From positions 1-6,113 of the IMG/VR virus record IMGVR_UViG_2541047961_000012: a stretch of 6,113 nucleotides of DNA; one strand, 5' to 3'. Source of the DNA: a virus (lineage: Duplodnaviria > Heunggongvirae > Uroviricota > Caudoviricetes). The stretch's first letter is position 1. Each line of letters begins with the position of its first letter. Shown piece by piece: positions 1 to 6,113 of this stretch. The notes below the pieces were generated by a model. The model saw nothing but the letters and a program-made list of their open reading frames with translations. It did not search any database and had not been told where the DNA came from. A program made the position numbers and the translations under genes.

Positions 1-252
1 CTGTTTTCTGGCGTCTCCTGCCAGTGTGATGGTTTTGTCCTGTTTTTCCTGTGCGTCCAGGCTTTTATTAATCAGGTTGCCCAGCGGCGTGGCGGAGAAC
101 GCCGCATCAGCCATTTCCTGGCGGCGCTCGTTCTCTACCCGGTAGGCATCCAGCCAGGAGGAAAGCGCGGATTCAGGAGCGGGGATCCCCGTTCCTTCAC
201 GCCCCACTGCGTGGCGCGGTTGTTGCCAGTCCCTGATGTACTCTGCCGTCAT
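1..252 (-). CDS. hypothetical protein, N-terminal 84 codons only (gene runs off the left edge)
   Basis: Hand translation of the minus strand: ATG at 252..250, open to position 1 with no stop (MTAEYIRDWQQPRHAVGREGTGIP...). It starts 6 nt after the TAA (261..259) of the upstream gene, with only a weak SD. Absent from the ORF track because it is truncated. No family recognised. Confidence 0.45.
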   Translation of the reverse strand, partial: MTAEYIRDWQQPRHAVGREGTGIPAPESALSSWLDAYRVENERRQEMADAAFSATPLGNLINKSLDAQEKQDKTITLAGDARKQ

Positions 253-258
253 AGTGAT

Positions 259-624
259 TTACTTCGTCATGCCATTCAGGGTGTCGCGGCAGACTGTAGC
301 CAGCCGCTGAATTTCCAGCACGGTGTCTTCTGTGTCGGCATGGCGATGTGTGATGCGGATGCTGTCGGCAATCACATCGACGATTGCAGAGGATGGGCGC
401 TGGTAAATGCCAATAACGGACGGGGTGCCGCCTTCAATGCGGTAAAGCCTGTAATTTCCCTCGTGGCTGTCAATCATGTAGCGGCCATCAATAACAATCT
501 TTCCGTCAGCGAGCTGCGGTACAGGCAGGGATTTCAGGTACATGTCATAACGGTCACGCACGCGAACGGCAAGATCACGCTCTGTGTTGAGCAGGTATTC
601 AAGAAAGTCGTTGGCGAGAATCAT
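259..624 (-). CDS. hypothetical protein (121 aa)
   Basis: ORF in track. SD AAGAGGA sits 9 nt upstream of the ATG at 624..622. Composition is protein-like, unlike the overlapping plus-strand frame, which is Cys/Arg-rich. No family recognised. Confidence 0.6.
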   Translation of the reverse strand: MILANDFLEYLLNTERDLAVRVRDRYDMYLKSLPVPQLADGKIVIDGRYMIDSHEGNYRLYRIEGGTPSVIGIYQRPSSAIVDVIADSIRITHRHADTEDTVLEIQRLATVCRDTLNGMTK

Positions 625-696
625 TGCGGCAATCCTCTTGTTACAGATGTGCGAAGGCCTCCCGCCGCAAGGTGCAGGAAAGGCCCGGAACAGGAA

Positions 697-927
697 TTAA
701 TGGAGTTTGTTTTGCTGCTGGATGAGATCCTGAAGAGACAGGAGGTCTTCCGCCAGATAGCTGAATACAGCGGCGCAGTAGTCGGCTGAAATAGTGTTGT
801 TGAGTCTGTGCAATGTGTTGGATTGCATGATAAAGGCGATGTGTGCAGCGCGGGTGAGTCTGCGATCGATTTCAGTCTGGATGTGACGACGCTCCGCGAT
901 AGTGCGGTGCTGTTTGCGGTTTGCCAT
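697..927 (-). CDS. hypothetical small basic protein (76 aa)
   Basis: ORF in track. SD AAGAGG sits 8 nt upstream of the ATG at 927..925. Arg-rich N-terminus (MANRKQHRTIAERRHIQ) could be nucleic-acid binding. No family recognised. Confidence 0.5.
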   Translation of the reverse strand: MANRKQHRTIAERRHIQTEIDRRLTRAAHIAFIMQSNTLHRLNNTISADYCAAVFSYLAEDLLSLQDLIQQQNKLH

Positions 928-1020
928 GGTGTGGCCTCTTTGTTGGTAAGTTTTGAATACTCACCATCCAGAGCTGCGAAACTGTGGGTGGCGAGACGTA
1001 CGAGGTTCGCAGTACCGGTC

Positions 1021-1056
1021 AACAAAGAAAACCCGGCCCGACCGAAGTCGGCCCCG
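1021..1056 (-). terminator. candidate intrinsic terminator (minus strand)
   Basis: Minus strand reads GGGGCCGAC-TTCG-GTCGGGCC followed by GGGTTTTCTTTGTT: a GC-rich stem with one mismatch, a UUCG tetraloop and a T-rich tail. Confidence 0.35.
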
Positions 1057-1106
1057 TACGCCCCACCATAATTCTGATGCGAAAAAATGTGCGGCAATGC
1101 GGTACG

Positions 1107-1234
1107 CACAAAAAAACCGCTGGCGCGGTTGTGCGCTTTGTTGATCAGCAGGCTGCGAAACCCGGCACCCGTTTTATGAGATGCAACGGAAATGTAACCT
1201 GACTGATTGCGGCATGGCAAGCGGTTTTTTTGTG
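1107..1234. repeat. 15-bp perfect inverted repeat pair flanking 98 bp (cacaaaaaaaccgct at 1107..1121; agcggtttttttgtg at 1220..1234)
   Basis: Exact reverse complements, checked base by base. Each arm carries an A7 or T7 tract. The left arm also forms a local hairpin (cgcacaa / ccgc-tggc-gcgg / ttgtgcg) that reads as stem plus T7 on the minus strand. Confidence 0.6.
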
Positions 1235-1247
1235 AGAACGGCATACT

Positions 1248-1292
1248 AAAAAAATCCTGATACTGCTCCGGCCAGCGATTTTCACTGGCCGG
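1248..1292 (-). terminator. candidate terminator of the SPFH operon
   Basis: Perfect 8-bp GC-rich stem (ccggccag 1268..1275 / ctggccgg 1285..1292) with a 9-nt loop, starting 6 nt after the TAA (1301..1299) of the SPFH gene. On the minus strand a T7 tract (1254..1248) follows, but 13 nt beyond the stem, so geometry is non-canonical. Confidence 0.4.
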
Positions 1293-1298
1293 GTTTAA

Positions 1299-2129
1299 TT
1301 ACTTCACCGGAACAAACGGAACAGCGGTGTTGCTGGTCATGTATTGCGGCAGCGTGCCGTTCCATTTGTTGATTGCTTCCAGCTCCATAACGCCGGGATT
1401 CTGGCGCAGAGCTTCACCGCGTAAACGAATGGCGTCGGCTTCAGCCTGGGCTTTTGTGCGAATGGCATCAGCCTGTCCGGCAGCTTCTGCGCGCAACATG
1501 TTGGCTTCTGCTTCGCGTTGCTTGACTTCCTGTTCGCGTTGCAGGGTTTTCTGGTTTGCCGTGACTTTGGCATTAATGCTGTCGATAACGGTTGACGGGT
1601 ACTCCGGCTTACCCACATATGAGAGGCTCATTACCTGAATACCGATGGGTGTCATTTCCTCCTGAATGTCTTTAAGAGCTGCATCCAGTAGTTCAGATTT
1701 CCCGCCGTCGATAAATTTGTCGGTGGTCATTTTGCTGGCCAGTCGGTTGAGTGCATCGGCGATCTTCTGGCGCAGGTCAGTGTCGGTAATGTCATCCACG
1801 CCTTTGCGGTAGGTCTGAAACACTGTAGTAACTTTGGATGGATCAACCTTGTAGGCCACACCGATGTGATAGCCGATGGTTGTGCCGTCACTCATCTGGA
1901 AGCTGAACGGCTCATCGTAGGTCTTCATTTGTTTGAAGGTCGGGAAGATGTAAACCTCGGTATTCCAGCCAGTCCAGTAGCGGCCAACGCCAACCACTTC
2001 GCCGACGCCTTTGTCGTCGCCCAGTTTATTTACCTTGATGCCCACATTACCTGGCTCAACGCGATCGCAACCAACCAGCAGGATGGCGGCAAAAAGCGGG
2101 ATAATCTGAAAGAGTTTGAGTTTCTTCAT
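1299..2129 (-). CDS. SPFH/Band-7 (stomatin/prohibitin/HflKC-like) domain lipoprotein, 276 aa
   Basis: ORF in track. SD GAGGAAA upstream. N-terminal lipoprotein signal MKKLKLFQIIPLFAAILLVGC with lipobox LVGC, and Asp at +2 (CD...). C-terminal Ala/Glu-rich helical region with AEADAIR-type repeats typical of SPFH proteins. The start ATG (2129..2127) overlaps the upstream stop as ATGA. Family call is from motifs only, no HMM run. Confidence 0.8.
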   Translation of the reverse strand: MKKLKLFQIIPLFAAILLVGCDRVEPGNVGIKVNKLGDDKGVGEVVGVGRYWTGWNTEVYIFPTFKQMKTYDEPFSFQMSDGTTIGYHIGVAYKVDPSKVTTVFQTYRKGVDDITDTDLRQKIADALNRLASKMTTDKFIDGGKSELLDAALKDIQEEMTPIGIQVMSLSYVGKPEYPSTVIDSINAKVTANQKTLQREQEVKQREAEANMLRAEAAGQADAIRTKAQAEADAIRLRGEALRQNPGVMELEAINKWNGTLPQYMTSNTAVPFVPVK

Positions 2130-2329
2130 TGTTTGATTTCCTCAATGTATTTACTGAAAAAGCGAACAACGCCTGCCGGGTACAGCAGGGCAATGAAAAT
2201 GCCCAGCAATACCAGGAAGGAACTGTCAGATGAAATCATTCGGGGGAGTAGTCCTGCATACAGGATGAGAGAAATGAGGACGCATACCAGCGCCCACATG
2301 TATGCGCGAAACCATGTCTTGTTGTTCAT
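2126..2329 (-). CDS. small two-helix membrane protein (67 aa)
   Basis: Start chosen at ATG 2329..2327 (MNNKTWFRAYMWALVCVLISLILYAGLLPRMISSDSSFLVLLGIFIALLYPAGVVRFFSKYIEEIKQ). SD AAGGG sits 7 nt upstream and overlaps the TAA of the preceding gene. Two hydrophobic segments with basic termini. The stop overlaps the SPFH start as ATGA. Confidence 0.65.
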   Translation of the reverse strand: MNNKTWFRAYMWALVCVLISLILYAGLLPRMISSDSSFLVLLGIFIALLYPAGVVRFFSKYIEEIKQ

Positions 2330-2339
2330 GTTGCGGCCC

Positions 2340-2639
2340 TTACTGGTTAAGGAAAAAATCGAAAACCTTGTCAATGCGTTGCAGCAGCTCTTGCTGTATT
2401 GCTTCCGGCGTTTCCGGTTCTCCTGGCGCCTCCAACGTCGCGCAGAAATCCTTGATTTCATGATGGAGTGTCAGGCGAATGGCAGGAGCTGTGGTTCTGG
2501 CGTGCTCCAGTTCATCCAGTAGCGCCAGCACGGCAGACGGCGAGAGCATTGCGCGAAACGCCAGTAATTTTTGATGCGTTGCCATTCGTTGCAGGTCAGT
2601 CGCCAGTTCGCGTAATTCCTGGTGGTTGATGGCGCTCAT
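2340..2639 (-). CDS. hypothetical acidic helical protein (99 aa)
   Basis: ORF in track. SD AAGGAAG sits 9 nt upstream. The start overlaps the upstream stop as ATGA (2639..2636). No family recognised. Confidence 0.6.
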   Translation of the reverse strand: MSAINHQELRELATDLQRMATHQKLLAFRAMLSPSAVLALLDELEHARTTAPAIRLTLHHEIKDFCATLEAPGEPETPEAIQQELLQRIDKVFDFFLNQ

Positions 2640-2881
2640 GCTCTGGCTTCCTTCAGTAGCTGGTTAAACATGTTGGTAAGTGGATTGCCGCCCCCGAACG
2701 GCATCGGGTTTATCTGGTAAGAAAAGCGACCGCCTGTTTTGCGCTCTTTTCTTATGACTGAACCGCTGCGCCAGAGTCGGCGTAACTCCGCATTAATGGC
2801 TGTGGTTGGGGTATTCAGTGCTGCGGCGATTTCTCCACCGCTACACCCCGGATTGGCGGCGATATAGTCCAGAATGGTCAT
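2636..2881 (-). CDS. small winged-helix DNA-binding protein, FaeA/PapI-like (81 aa)
   Basis: ORF in track. SD AGGAG sits 9 nt upstream. N-terminal ILDYIAANPGCSGGEIAAAL... resembles the FaeA/PapI-type small wHTH regulators as I recall them. The start overlaps the upstream stop as ATGA (2881..2878). Not verified by search. Confidence 0.55.
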   Translation of the reverse strand: MTILDYIAANPGCSGGEIAAALNTPTTAINAELRRLWRSGSVIRKERKTGGRFSYQINPMPFGGGNPLTNMFNQLLKEARA

Positions 2882-3081
2882 CTGCGTGACTCCTGTACCT
2901 GTCGGATAAGGTTCACCCGCACCACGTTGGTGGCGCAGAAGTAAGTGCCGTCAGTGAGATAGATGTGATGTGCATCCTGTTCTGAACGGTGTTTGTCGAT
3001 TGTGGTAATCAGGCGTTCGTCGACCTCGTATTCACGTCCTCTGGAAGTGAAACGAACGACAGGAAAATGCTTAATTGCCAT
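2878..3081 (-). CDS. hypothetical protein (67 aa), first gene of the SPFH operon
   Basis: ORF in track. Strong SD AAGGAGG sits 5 nt upstream of the ATG at 3081..3079. Preceded by an 86-bp non-coding gap. No family recognised. Confidence 0.55.
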   Translation of the reverse strand: MAIKHFPVVRFTSRGREYEVDERLITTIDKHRSEQDAHHIYLTDGTYFCATNVVRVNLIRQVQESRR

Positions 3082-3167
3082 TGCGCCTCCTTGGCGTGTG
3101 CGAATACCTCCGCGAATGCGGATTGTTTTTACATTTTCTTATTTAACCTGTGGTTTTATTTGCTCTG

Positions 3168-3281
3168 TTATTCGCCAGTGAAAAAGCGTTCAATCTTTTT
3201 TACTGAATGAATAATTCGCATAATCCCAATGGCGCAGACCACCGAAATAATCAGAACAAGCCATGAGATAAATATACTCAT
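3168..3281 (-). CDS. 37-aa hydrophobic micro-protein (MSIFISWLVLIISVVCAIGIMRIIHSVKKIERFFTGE), predicted single-pass membrane peptide
   Basis: Found by hand translation, too short for the ORF track. ATG 3281..3279 overlaps the TGA (3280..3278) of the upstream 80-aa gene as ATGA. A 20-residue hydrophobic helix is followed by a basic tail. Stop TAA at 3170..3168. Only a weak GGGA SD-like element. Confidence 0.4.
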   Translation of the reverse strand: MSIFISWLVLIISVVCAIGIMRIIHSVKKIERFFTGE

Positions 3282-3520
3282 GCGATATTTCCCAGCTTAT
3301 ACGGTTCAATATGTTCCCCGCATTCTGCGGCACAGATCAACTCGGAAAGTTCGTTAAGTGCATCCAGATCATCAGCGTAAAAAGCCACGTCATACAGACT
3401 CCGGATTGCCCTGGTCAATGAGTCACGGGCTGCACGTTCAGCATGAGCGCCTGATGCACTTAAGCGAAAATAAAAACGCTCAAGTGCTTTGTTAATGAGA
3501 GTTTTATATTCTTTGCCCAT
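3278..3520 (-). CDS. hypothetical protein (80 aa)
   Basis: ORF in track. SD AAGGG sits 7 nt upstream of the ATG at 3520..3518, 11 nt after the upstream stop. No family recognised. Confidence 0.55.
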   Translation of the reverse strand: MGKEYKTLINKALERFYFRLSASGAHAERAARDSLTRAIRSLYDVAFYADDLDALNELSELICAAECGEHIEPYKLGNIA

Positions 3521-3531
3521 CGCAACGCCCT

Positions 3532-3819
3532 TTAATCTGCTTTCTGAATTTCAGTTTCTGAATCCATACAAATAATTTCGATATAGGGTTCATCGCCATT
3601 AGCCGGGCGTGCCTTTTCAGCTTCACTAATGATTTCTCGTACGGTCTGGTACGGAAGTTCCACAAGCAGTCGCGTGCCGTTCAGATAAACGTAAGTGGCT
3701 TCGTTGGCTCCGTTTTTACCCGCCGGAGCCACTCCATCAATAGCGGATGCGCGTAATAACAGTTCACCGCGAAAATCAATAAAACGGATAAATACACCTT
3801 GTGCATGCTCTTTGGTCAT
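3532..3819 (-). CDS. hypothetical protein (95 aa)
   Basis: Track ORF 3532..3879 trimmed to the internal ATG at 3819..3817 (MTKEHAQGVFIRF...). That start has SD AGGTG 5 nt upstream and lies 10 nt after the upstream stop. The longer start at 3879 has no SD and would overlap the upstream gene by 50 nt. Confidence 0.55.
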   Translation of the reverse strand: MTKEHAQGVFIRFIDFRGELLLRASAIDGVAPAGKNGANEATYVYLNGTRLLVELPYQTVREIISEAEKARPANGDEPYIEIICMDSETEIQKAD

Positions 3820-3829
3820 AACGCACCTG

Positions 3830-4180
3830 TTATAAATCAGCCTGTTTAATAAAACTTTGCCCGCGAAGCAGACGATCAACCGTGCGAAGTGCTTCGTATA
3901 ATGTGAAATCCTGTCCGAACTGATTGTCGCCGCAGCTCAATGAAAAAATGCGGTTTCCGGTAAACGGATTGCGTGGGCATTTGTGGACCACGATCCCGGC
4001 TTTCTCAATCAGCCAGGTATGCTCGCCGATTTGTTTTACTGGGTAGCCATCCGGCGTTGCGTGTGTTTCGCTCAGGCTGTAGCGAGAGCTGCTACGTGAT
4101 GCGCTGGTAGCGAAACGGTTAGCATGGCGTTCCGCACCGTTGCGGAAGCGCTGCTGTGAAGAATTGCGCCGTTCCTTCAT
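3830..4180 (-). CDS. hypothetical protein (116 aa) with a basic Ser/Arg-rich N-terminal region
   Basis: ORF in track. SD GGAG sits about 9 nt upstream of the ATG at 4180..4178. First gene after cox. No family recognised. Confidence 0.55.
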   Translation of the reverse strand: MKERRNSSQQRFRNGAERHANRFATSASRSSSRYSLSETHATPDGYPVKQIGEHTWLIEKAGIVVHKCPRNPFTGNRIFSLSCGDNQFGQDFTLYEALRTVDRLLRGQSFIKQADL

Positions 4181-4217
4181 ATCAAAATACTCCGCCTAAA
4201 ATGAGTTATGGTTTGAG

Positions 4218-4643
4218 TTATGCTGCTTTACCGCTGATGTTTCTGTTTCGTCTGCCACTTGTTGGCTTAAACAAAAACAGACGGTTTTCCCAGTCGTGCC
4301 ATTCCTGAGGTGCGTTTTCGATGAGGCGATCGCATGCTTCATCCCACGCTTTTCTGTTGATGTAGAGTTCAGCGTTTCCGCCTGGTTTAAGAGGGTCCGC
4401 CATATACACCGCAGGTAGCTTTCCTGCTTTGGCCATGCTTACGATGGCGTCAACGGTCTTTCCGATATACATCGCAAATCCTTCTTTTGACAGGAGATGC
4501 GAGGGATTTTCTGAAAGTCGAATTTCTTCACGTTCACGTGCTTTGCGTCCTGTTTTTTGATACTCCCCCTCTGGCATTTCTGACAGGCGATCGCATCGTG
4601 TTCCGCAAAGTGACTCAGGCGCGTTTTGAGTGCTTTCTTGCAT
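4218..4643 (-). CDS. cox: Cox/Apl-like excisionase-regulator homolog with a roughly 50-aa N-terminal extension (141 aa)
   Basis: Divergent from the C-type repressor. Core FAMYIGKTVDAIVSMAKAGKLPAVYMADP resembles the P2 Cox HTH region as I recall it. Strong SD GGAGG sits 8 nt upstream of the ATG at 4643..4641; the internal Met23 has no SD. Confidence 0.7.
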   Translation of the reverse strand: MQESTQNAPESLCGTRCDRLSEMPEGEYQKTGRKAREREEIRLSENPSHLLSKEGFAMYIGKTVDAIVSMAKAGKLPAVYMADPLKPGGNAELYINRKAWDEACDRLIENAPQEWHDWENRLFLFKPTSGRRNRNISGKAA

Positions 4644-4751
4644 CTGATATCCTCCGCTATTGGTGCTTTCTTCTAACTAGCACCATTTAGAACTAGTTAG
4701 CGCAATTCGTTGTGTGTTAATTGATGTATAAACTAAGTGAGTTAACTTACT
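4644..4751. promoter_or_regulatory. C/cox divergent switch region with operator-like dyads
   Basis: 108-bp AT-rich gap between divergent start codons. Inverted repeat CTAACTAG (4673..4680) / CTAGTTAG (4693..4700) with a 12-bp spacer. AACTAG direct repeats at 4675 and 4691. Dyad TGGTGC (4661..4666) / GCACCA (4680..4685). TATAAA at 4727..4732 preceded by TG. Exact promoter hexamers could not be assigned. Confidence 0.55.
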
Positions 4752-5051
4752 ATGTCAACTACCGTAGCTATGAAAATTCGCATCATGCGGAAGTCAGAAA
4801 TGCTTACACAAGAAAAAATGGCAGAGATTACTGGGCTTACTCTTGCTGCATTAAGGCAATATGAGCAAGGACGAAATGAACCCAACCTTGAGTCAACAAA
4901 AAAGCTTCTGAAAGCCCCCATGTTCCGTAAGTACCGCGACTGGTTTTTGTTTGATGAAGTTGAACCCAAGGCCGGGCAGGTTGTACCGGCTCTCGCACAC
5001 ATTGGGCAAGGCGAAGCGGAATCATCCCGCTCCGGCAAGAAGACTGGTTAA
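4752..5051 (+). CDS. C: P2 C-type immunity repressor (99 aa)
   Basis: ORF in track. Same length as P2 C, and the sequence (MSTTVAMKIRIMRKSEML...VPALAHIGQ...SGKKTG) closely resembles P2 C as I recall it, with an HTH near the N-terminus. Sits directly upstream of int on the same strand, as in P2. Confidence 0.85.
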   Translation: MSTTVAMKIRIMRKSEMLTQEKMAEITGLTLAALRQYEQGRNEPNLESTKKLLKAPMFRKYRDWFLFDEVEPKAGQVVPALAHIGQGEAESSRSGKKTG

Positions 5052-5117
5052 CGGTTCACCAGGCATTTATTTCCCAGAGCTGTGATCAAGATGATGTTTT
5101 CATTGGAGGGCTTCCTT

Positions 5118-6113
5118 ATGTCGATTAAGAAGCTCGCTAATGGCAAATTCTGTGTGGACGTGCGGCCAGCTGGATCAGAAGGAAAAAGATTCAGGCGGCG
5201 ATTTGATACTCGTGGTGAGGCTGTTTTGTATGAGCGTCATGTATTGCAGCATTACCACGACAAAGACTGGGTTGATAAGCCAACAGAACGGCGCTCGCTG
5301 AGGGAGTTGCTGGATTGTTGGTGGCTATACCACGGGAAAAATCATCCTTACGGTGCGATGGAGCGAGTGCGTATTTCTGCGGTCATTAGTGATCTTGAAA
5401 GTATTAATGTTACACGCAGCGACCAACTTACTCGTAAGAACATAATTAATTATCGGTTATTGTTGCTTAACCGCGGAATAAAACAATCCACGGTTAATCG
5501 TTATTGCGCAATGATGAGTGGTTTCTTCACAAAACTAATTGACGCAGAGGAATATTCTGGGGCTAATCCGTTTCATGATGTGAAAAAACTTAATATCAAA
5601 CAGCCTGAAATGGCTTATTTGTATCATGAGGATATTCCACGATTACTGGAGTTGTTATCTGGTGATGAATTAAAAGCTGTCTTGTTGTGTCTGGCAACAG
5701 GTGGAAGATGGAGTGAGGTTGCAAATATCAAGGGGGAGCATGTTATTAGCGGCAAAGTCATTTTTATGGAAACCAAAAATGGGAAGCGTCGCGTTATACC
5801 TATATCGTCAGAACTGGAGTGCATGATTAAAACAAAGGCCACTGGTCGTTTAATTTATCCAAGTTATGCCGCTGTCAGAGCTGCTATCAGAAAGGTGAGG
5901 CCCGATCTTCCTGAAGGGCAGTCGATACATGTTTTACGGCATACCTTTGCCACTCACTTCATGATTAATGGTGGGAATATCATCACTTTGCAGAGAATAC
6001 TTGGGCATAGCACTATTCAGCAGACGATGACTTATGCCCATTTTGCACCGGATTATCTGCAGGATGCTGTGCGCTTTAATCCTGTGGCTGAGTTGTCCAG
6101 ATATTGCCCATAA
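5118..6113 (+). CDS. int: tyrosine site-specific integrase, P2 Int-like (331 aa)
   Basis: Start moved from the track's 5082 to the ATG at 5118, which has SD GGAGGG 7 nt upstream and gives MSIKKLANGKFCVDVRP..., like the P2 Int N-terminus. C-terminal catalytic signature HVLRHTFATHF...GHSTIQQTMTYAH (H-x-x-R box and Tyr nucleophile). The stop TAA is the last 3 nt of the window. Confidence 0.9.
   Translation: MSIKKLANGKFCVDVRPAGSEGKRFRRRFDTRGEAVLYERHVLQHYHDKDWVDKPTERRSLRELLDCWWLYHGKNHPYGAMERVRISAVISDLESINVTRSDQLTRKNIINYRLLLLNRGIKQSTVNRYCAMMSGFFTKLIDAEEYSGANPFHDVKKLNIKQPEMAYLYHEDIPRLLELLSGDELKAVLLCLATGGRWSEVANIKGEHVISGKVIFMETKNGKRRVIPISSELECMIKTKATGRLIYPSYAAVRAAIRKVRPDLPEGQSIHVLRHTFATHFMINGGNIITLQRILGHSTIQQTMTYAHFAPDYLQDAVRFNPVAELSRYCP

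Follow-up and report, generated by a model that had tools for sequence, protein, structure and literature searches.

A C4/IsrK-type antisense-RNA cassette ahead of an epsilon-like gene at the integrase-proximal end of a P88-type prophage

In the immI region of phages P1 and P7, an antisense RNA is processed from the transcript of its own targets and recognizes them in two parts, a and b. The target lies over the ribosome-binding site of a gene ahead of the anti-repressor, and the sequence of the RNA sets heteroimmunity. P1 c4 RNA acts on translation. Related arrangements are described in other elements: the isrK locus of Gifsy-1 controls an anti-repressor and prophage induction (PMC4825925), the IsrK-C4 pair has been equated with the seqA-CI pair of the satellite P4 (PMC3632133), and the epsilon protein of P4 has been described as inactivating the P2 repressor (PMC8628076; PMC2669165). 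Here we analyze a stretch of viral DNA of 6,113 nucleotides (positions 1 to 6,113 of the IMG/VR record IMGVR_UViG_2541047961_000012; the window, hereafter, is this whole stretch) and the element to which it belongs. We consider it very likely that the window comes from a P88-type (Xuanwuvirus, Peduoviridae) prophage of the P2 family, whose integrase-proximal end it represents and in which a C4/IsrK-epsilon cassette exerts control. As a by-product of the analysis, a complete C4/IsrK antisense-RNA cassette came to light in an unannotated 370-bp gap before an epsilon-like gene and the replication gene A. Our search of the literature found no paper on such an RNA cassette in P2-family phages or on antisense-RNA immunity in the Peduoviridae. 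What appears to be new, as read from sequence, is thus a known kind of RNA immunity in a phage family where we found no description of it.

The antisense-RNA cassette and its pairing code

Bases 928-1298 of the window (370 bp) hold no credible open reading frame (ORF) and two structured RNA genes on the minus strand, which an earlier note on this DNA had missed. In the direction of transcription, the parts of the cassette and the gene that follows it are:

1191..1220, minus strand: sigma-70-like promoter, TTGCCA-18 nt-TACATT, at a position that fits a start at the IsrK 5' end
1110..1184, minus strand: IsrK / P4-seqA-like leader RNA (Rfam RF01394, 66.4 bits against a gathering score of 50)
1159-1153, minus strand: a1 (UUCGCAG), IsrK hairpin loop, complementary to a'
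1144-1136, minus strand: b1 (UCAACAAAG), IsrK linker, complementary to b'
1130-1115, minus strand: stem, followed by U7, of an intrinsic terminator at the IsrK end, recognized from sequence
984..1073, minus strand: C4 / P4-CI-type antisense RNA (Rfam RF01695, 77.8 bits against a gathering score of 45)
1027-1019, minus strand: b' (CUUUGUUGA), loop of C4 hairpin 2, complementary to b1 and b2
1012-1006, minus strand: a' (CUGCGAA), single-stranded in C4, complementary to a1 and a2
974..980, minus strand: a2 target (UUCGCAG), complementary to a'
935..945, minus strand: b2 target (CAACAAAGA, 945-937) overlapping the Shine-Dalgarno sequence, complementary to b'
697..927, minus strand: gene for a 76-aa homologue of P4 epsilon (helper derepression / anti-repressor protein), recognized by BLASTP, Pfam and hhalign

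The match to RF01695, which stands for the C4/CI immunity of Rfam clan CL00128, is full-length (model positions 1-87 of 87), and the leader stretch also has a weak overlapping match to RF03163, a family named "a1, b1 targets of C4." The promoter is the sole promoter-like site within 600-1400, and its sequence is invariant in an alignment of six genomes. The b2 target overlaps the Shine-Dalgarno sequence AAGAGG (940-935), which stands 8 nt before the ATG (927) of the epsilon-like gene. In the predicted fold of the read-through transcript, a1/b1 pair in cis with a'/b' (z-score -4.3), and this fold resembles the inactive structure described for Gifsy-1. Downstream, between the epsilon-like gene and a 121-aa ORF (orf121), window 630-690 (minus strand) contains a GC-rich, stable hairpin (GGGCCUUUCCUGC...GCGGCGGGAGGCC) that lacks a U-tail; its sequence hardly varies among the four relatives compared, and its z-score is -1.3. 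As a terminator this candidate is not convincing, given the missing U-tail and that z-score.

The pairing was followed across relatives. An exact search of IMG/VR with the invariant core of hairpin 1 returned at least 119 loci, all counts out of 119 here and below being among the matches listed, and all of those listed are P88-type. Together with annotated genomes they make 124 sequences, and the alignment comprises 59 distinct ones. Six P88-type genomes already display three a types and four b types, with all three partners changing together between invariant flanks. The 124 sequences hold at least 19 a'/b' combinations, and all but a few of the 19 have exact complementary targets of 7-10 nt on both sides; two combinations with one common b' type (7 sequences) have exact b matches of only 5-6 nt. 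Among the 59 distinct sequences, 99.6% of cells are paired between a1/b1 and a'/b', with double changes at 11 of 16 pairs, and 98.4% between a'/b' and a2/b2, with double changes at 10 of 16. Taken separately, 97.2% of cells are paired in b'/b2 (double changes at 6 of 9 pairs) and 100% in a'/a2 (4 of 7). When the partner was slid by 1-3 columns as a control, only 26-53% were paired. The comparative support for the cassette is unusually clean in this near-perfect three-way covariation. It provides strong evidence that selection acts jointly on the C4 RNA and the four targets, a result that concerns the pairing itself and does not address its effect. The cassette is a complete and probably functional C4/IsrK-epsilon unit of a known kind.

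The specificity of the window differs from that of P88 in both parts: b is CAACAAAG here and CAACUACAG in P88, and a is UUCGCAG here and UUUCCAC in P88. The two should therefore be RNA-heteroimmune. Cassette and epsilon-like gene (window 690-1300) are 84% identical to P88 (L001), compared with 95% for the whole window, and among phages they match Citrobacter phage Shae_phiSM best, at 92%. The low local identity to P88 fits either diversifying specificity or recombination.

The 76-aa protein is 29% identical to P4 epsilon (BLASTP, E 1e-8). All 12 variants tested match the Pfam family PF25738, "Derepression" (best E 5e-8), and hhalign gives a probability of 93%. Its gene stands at the same offset from C4 in all 119 listed loci. 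The homology to P4 epsilon suggests a putative anti-repressor role. Two main types of the protein, distinguished by their central third, occur in the listed loci (L010-L128): E0 in 91 and E1 in 26, the protein of the window being of type E1. At 85% identity, the C repressors linked to them comprise at least 15 types; E1 is found chiefly beside five of these and E0 beside the others. This association between epsilon and C types is partial and may be caused by physical linkage.

Among described systems, the same two Rfam models match P4 (CI RNA, 74.9 bits with RF01695, and seqA) and P88, and neither matches the early regions of P2 or 186. P4 (PLE-seqA-CI RNA-seqC-...-epsilon-orf151-cnr-alpha) has the pairing geometry of the window in other sequences, and the order is alike: a leader with a1/b1, a C4-type RNA, a2/b2 on the Shine-Dalgarno sequence of the next ORF, an epsilon homologue and a replication gene. 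However, P4 has another ORF between the RNA and epsilon, whereas epsilon follows the RNA directly here; its replication gene encodes the alpha primase-helicase, whereas that of the window is probably a GpA-type nickase; and P4 is a satellite, whereas the cassette here sits in what is probably a complete helper-type phage. P4 alpha had no match in the 119 listed loci; sid, psu and delta were not searched separately. Relatives of P4 epsilon in genome contigs came to 6 loci, too few for use.

Eighty P4-like satellite loci (L135-L214) carry at least 14 a'/b' combinations, built from 3-4 a' types and about 8 b' types. Their epsilon is 96-99% identical to that of P4, yet their a' and b' have diversified by the same mix-and-match as in the P88-type phages.

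P1 and P7 agree with the window in the two-part a/b recognition and in a target over a ribosome-binding site, but they have the anti-repressor Ant and icd; here, the epsilon-like gene encodes 76 aa, no icd-like ORF is present, and integration is by a tyrosine integrase. Gifsy-1 (isrK-orf45(STnc1160)-anrP) resembles the window in its IsrK leader with its own promoter and leaky terminator, its C4-like RNA and the downstream position of its anti-repressor, where the window has a putative one (PMC4825925), but its anti-repressor is of the Rha/AnrP family and its short IsrK RNA activates translation. In the lambdoid phages Stx2a_1447 (L215) and mEp460 (L216), an IsrK-C4-antirepressor cassette lies between cII and O, just ahead of replication. 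The a' of both (AUUUCCAC) is one of the P4-like a' types, and another lambdoid phage, ASU11, has the a' of the window with a different b'.

A P88-type prophage end and its replication gene

The features that place the window among known phages stand at its two ends:

5082..6113, plus strand: tyrosine integrase, 3' end cut; Int_N and Phage_integrase domains, annotated as integrase in P88 and E94
4752..5051, plus strand: P2-type immunity repressor C; HTH_3 domain, 44% identical to P2 C
4218..4643, minus strand: cox (excisionase / Pc repressor family), first gene of the early operon; Phage_Cox, 97.1 bits, 36% identical to P2 Cox
1..252, minus strand: 5' end of replication gene A (84 codons; GpA-type rolling-circle replication endonuclease), by its match to P88 YP_009113059

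Phage P88 (NC_026014) aligns to 100% of the 6113 bases in one piece, at 95.3% identity, and is collinear through int, C, cox, the small ORFs, the SPFH insertion, IsrK/C4, the epsilon-like gene, orf121 and the start of A. A prophage of Escherichia coli E94, whose integrase adjoins ppa, matches the whole window at 95.7% identity; across P88 and complete prophages, identity to the window is 95-97%. In both, the adjoining region carries A, parM/parR, and portal, terminase, scaffold, capsid, lysis, baseplate, tail-fibre, sheath and tape-measure genes. Mitomycin C induction yielded P88, a plaque-forming phage with a burst of ~65 (PMC5285337). At least 80% of window bases 1-1240 are covered in 874 of 5426 complete E. 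coli genomes, so that P88-type phages are present in about one-sixth of them. The element is an ordinary representative of a common, known phage type.

The divergent C/Cox switch adjoins the tyrosine integrase in the same order as in P88. C and int run rightward; cox and the lineage-specific small ORFs run leftward into A at base 252. The repressor is 44% identical to P2 C across all 99 residues (E 3e-35). A search for C operators in 4644-4751 found short repeats only. Cox as annotated has 141 aa and is about 39 residues longer at its N-terminus than the Pfam Cox model and P2 Cox. The window's cox type occurs in 22 of the 119 listed loci, the int-C-cox module being swapped as a block among otherwise similar early regions.

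The ORF at the left edge proved, as the earlier note had suspected, to be the start of a larger gene: 83 of its 84 residues are identical to residues 1-84 of P88 YP_009113059 (940 aa), the N-terminus of the P88-type A, and in P88 and E94, the gene that starts at this point is a 2.8-kb "replication endonuclease." Phage_GPA matches P88 A at residues 179-503 (429 bits). This domain falls beyond the window, which contains codons 1-84 only, and A was therefore unrecognizable to a reader without tools; no window protein matched a Pfam replication domain. The full P88 A is 31% identical to the A of P2 (761 aa) and 35% identical to that of 186. A follows the C4 core at the same offset in 106 of the 119 listed loci, the others ending at contig edges. 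Directly after A, P88-type phages have a plasmid partition pair of the ParM/ParR type although they integrate (L001 4078-5353); to our knowledge, the other phages with C4-type RNA immunity (P1, P7, N15 and P4) all have plasmid states.

The earlier note had held that no A- or B-like gene lies within 4.4 kb of cox. This stands for B, of which none of the small ORFs is a homologue, and fails for A, which begins immediately to the left of those ORFs, at a distance of 3,965 bp from the cox stop. The corresponding distance is 1,754 bp in P2 and 3,340 bp in 186, and the greater length here is due to a cargo insertion of about 1.1 kb with an SPFH gene and to the 0.6-kb RNA regulatory cassette. No P2 B homologue was found by tblastn in the window, the whole P88 genome or four relatives (best E 0.055, on the wrong strand), nor any homologue of P2 orf78 and orf80-83 or of 186 cII, fil, dhr and CP79-84; the early proteins orf78 and orf80-83 gave no match with E <0.2. 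Of the P2 and 186 early proteins in this set, Cox and A alone matched. P2 B has no Pfam family, which makes a profile test for B impossible. In phage 186, A is the sole known phage replication gene, so that the missing B is no sign of a defect. It is normal in the P88 lineage.

The window shares with P2 the divergent C/cox switch and, to judge by the P88 counterpart, probably also a GpA-type gene at the end of the early operon, but P2 has the order cox-orf78-B-orf80..83-A, without counterparts of B and orf78-83 in the window, and has no epsilon-like gene. With 186 (apl-cII-fil-dhr-...-A), it shares a long early operon (3.34 kb in 186) of small non-essential ORFs before A, which in 186 is translationally coupled to the preceding ORF (according to the record's annotation), although the two have no small ORFs in common. 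The anti-repressor of 186, Tum, is LexA-controlled and encoded downstream of A, whereas the epsilon-like gene here is upstream of A and would be controlled by antisense RNA. With an early region unrelated to those of P2 and 186 and without B, the P88-type int-C-cox-early-operon end agrees with the earlier suggestion of a "non-canonical P2-like phage." The apparent anomaly dissolves: the start of the replication gene is present, the absence of B is normal for the lineage, and the phage type is viable and common.

The early operon, its cargo slot and public annotation

Left of cox, the window contains short minus-strand ORFs and the SPFH gene only, which bears out the ORF inventory of the earlier note:

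3830-4180, minus strand: DUF4761 ORF (Pfam/PHROG match)
3532-3819, minus strand: phrog_3800 ORF (PHROG match)
3278-3520, minus strand: DUF4754 ORF (Pfam/PHROG match)
3168-3281, minus strand: 37-aa membrane peptide (from the ORF list)
2878-3081, minus strand: 67-aa ORF (from the ORF list; tblastn in relatives)
2636-2881, minus strand: MarR-type winged helix-turn-helix protein (Pfam/PHROG match)
2340-2639, minus strand: Ead/Ea22-like ORF (Pfam/PHROG match)
2126-2329, minus strand: 67-aa membrane protein (phrog_1130, "moron ... membrane protein")
1299-2129, minus strand: SPFH/Band-7 lipoprotein (Band_7, 106.7 bits; phrog_200, "lipoprotein")
1235..2339, minus strand: cargo insertion ("moron"), including a hairpin at 1268-1290, seen as a gap in relatives
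259..624, minus strand: 121-aa ORF, orf121 (phrog_3237, E 3e-55)

That these ORFs are coupled is likewise upheld by four 4-nt ATGA overlaps and by gaps of 10-11 nt at most other junctions. Six of those within 2340..4180 (all but the 37-aa peptide) served as tblastn queries, and each is present in 74-107 of the 119 listed loci. orf121 is present in 82. Its stop lies 6 nt ahead of the A start codon, which makes translational coupling to A likely. It has no similarity to P4 orf151, P4 cnr or P2 early proteins.

The 67-aa membrane protein and the SPFH gene are an insertion, as relatives without ~1235-2339 reveal. In P884B11 and PV468777, the Ead/Ea22-like gene runs directly into the equivalent of window base ~1234, and three listed loci (L046, L012 and L128) match the window over 1-1234 (for L128, from 619), with the match resuming at 2319-2349. 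The SPFH gene is present in 37 of the 119 listed loci. In Shae_phiSM and 14 other loci (15 listed loci), the same slot is filled by a 183-aa helix-turn-helix gene. A variable cargo site therefore lies between the Ead/Ea22-like gene and the IsrK promoter (window 1235-2339; L006 3933-4484), and the remaining listed loci are without the three cargo genes searched for. The SPFH protein matches PF01145 (106.7 bits) over residues 23-209, its N-terminus, MKKLKLFQIIPLFAAILLVGC, looks like a lipobox, and its matches in NCBIfam are weak and HflK/C-like only. At the nucleotide level, the gene is 93% identical to a gene of lambdoid phiP27 and Stx phages that bears the annotation "serine protease" or "lipoprotein" there. 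PADLOC defence models matched none of ten ORFs including the SPFH gene, and our literature search found nothing specific on prophage SPFH lipoproteins.

The IsrK/C4 RNA genes are misannotated in public records, which place protein-coding features on top of them. In P88, this is a "hypothetical protein" antisense to both RNAs (L001 8988-9176, plus strand), in P884B11 a 205-aa "transcriptional regulator," in PV468777 an "ash family" feature and in Stx2a_1447 an over-long "antirepressor" (L215 846-1997); overlaid features also have the coordinates 984-1202 (plus strand) in the window, 4494-5111 in L007 and 4494-4754 in L008. In P884B11, Stx2a_1447 and P4, translation of the IsrK-C4 stretch gives a match to Pfam Phage_ASH (PF10554), so that at least part of this protein family appears to model an RNA locus. 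PF10554 served as the epsilon marker in one satellite survey (PMC8628076).

Proposed control and rival explanations

How the cassette would work can be inferred step by step from the analogy with P1 c4-icd-ant, P4 CI-seqA/seqC and Gifsy-1 IsrK-STnc1160-AnrP. Transcripts that start at the cassette promoter in the lysogen and run past the terminator of the leader would be processed to C4 RNA, which would pair with a2/b2 and block translation of the epsilon-like protein. Polarity or premature termination arising from this block may damp the downstream orf121-A message as well, and C4 control would then be a second, RNA-based lock on replication besides repressor C. On a rise in early transcription, the a1/b1 leader RNA and excess target would titrate the C4 RNA, and the epsilon-like protein, once made, would inactivate the P2-type C, as P4 epsilon does P2 C, and reinforce the lytic switch. 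The a/b combinations would act as heteroimmunity classes. We put forward, tentatively and with considerable doubt, that a bipartite antisense-RNA code of at least 19 combinations gates an epsilon-type anti-repressor and, by way of it or by polarity, A as well, and so forms a second, satellite-style immunity layer.

Several points weigh against this proposal and the wider explanation to which it belongs. The cassette RNAs of a P88-type lysogen are known from sequence alone, and the window ends at codon 84 of A, so that the A of this particular genome was read only that far. With PF25738, the window's own 76-aa protein reaches 24.2 bits where the cut-off is 27, and that it binds C is a prediction only. 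Two main epsilon types set against at least 15 repressor types make a one-to-one specificity between anti-repressor and repressor unlikely. Since the hairpin between the epsilon-like gene and orf121 has no U-tail, a P4-style termination effect on A is purely inferential. Finally, LexA boxes (exact or with one mismatch, in the window and 14 kb of P88) occur at chance level, with none near a promoter, which leaves the link of the mechanism to mitomycin induction unexplained.

A narrower explanation, rather unlikely in our view, is that the cassette controls the epsilon-like gene only, at translation and in the style of P1 immI, while A is expressed independently. It draws on the position of b2 over the epsilon Shine-Dalgarno sequence, on the lack of an intrinsic terminator between epsilon and orf121, and on P1, whose c4 RNA acts at this level. 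However, epsilon, orf121 and A read in one direction and are separated by short spacers that contain no promoter-like site, and the homologous P4 RNA shuts off the downstream replication gene (PMC4825925; PMC3632133).

The absence of B bears on another possibility, that one of the small early ORFs is a non-homologous stand-in for B (the helicase loader) in a two-protein, P2-style replication. Several conserved ORFs without assigned function do lie between cox and A, and the 121-aa ORF is tightly coupled to A. Yet none of them resembles B or has a family match that points to replication (B itself, having no Pfam family, offers no profile for the comparison), and 186, whose A is the closer relative at 35% identity, is known to need only A. 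We think such a stand-in improbable.

It is tempting, given the P4-like architecture with its epsilon homologue, to see in the IsrK-C4 cassette mainly a device of defence or cross-talk against P4-like satellites, the C4 RNA of the helper silencing an incoming epsilon/alpha operon or the CI RNA of the satellite silencing the helper. P88-type phages belong to the P2-like family, and its type member, P2, is the helper that P4 exploits; satellite cross-talk has been put forward for lambdoid prophages (PMC3632133). But no a' or b' is common to the 14 combinations of the 80 P4-like loci and the 19 of the 124 P88-type sequences, so that, with this sampling, no pairing is predicted between the two groups, and the window's own combination is confined in IMG/VR to three P88-type contigs. 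Both directions of such silencing appear very improbable as the main role of the cassette.

Least credible are two of the alternatives in the earlier note, a defective prophage or an integrative island, either of which would have retained a P2-type int-C-cox switch and lost, or never had, its replication module: no complete replication gene or Pfam replication domain is visible in the window, and degenerate P2-like prophages such as Sp13 of O157 Sakai exist (PMC2669165), but the left-edge ORF is the near-identical start of P88 A, A recurs at its offset in all listed loci save those that end at contig edges, and every full-length relative continues into A, parMR and structural genes, the whole-window relatives being complete prophages or P88 itself, which forms plaques (PMC5285337).

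We therefore return to the P88-type prophage with C4/IsrK-epsilon control and to what it may mean for its relatives. Sp13, described as lacking most morphogenesis genes, has a P4 epsilon-like gene and is mitomycin-inducible, while its repressor is not cleavable; its inducibility was tentatively tied to the epsilon-like gene in 2009 (PMC2669165). The cassette opens the questions of how P2-family prophages without a cleavable repressor are locked and induced and whether RNA classes act in heteroimmunity. If the proposed gating is true, heteroimmunity and induction among P2-family prophages that share a cell would be decided by RNA specificity and not by C alone. The inducibility of some P2-like prophages whose repressors are not cleavable could be explained in this way as well, and the common cassette would be a record of gene exchange between helpers and satellites.

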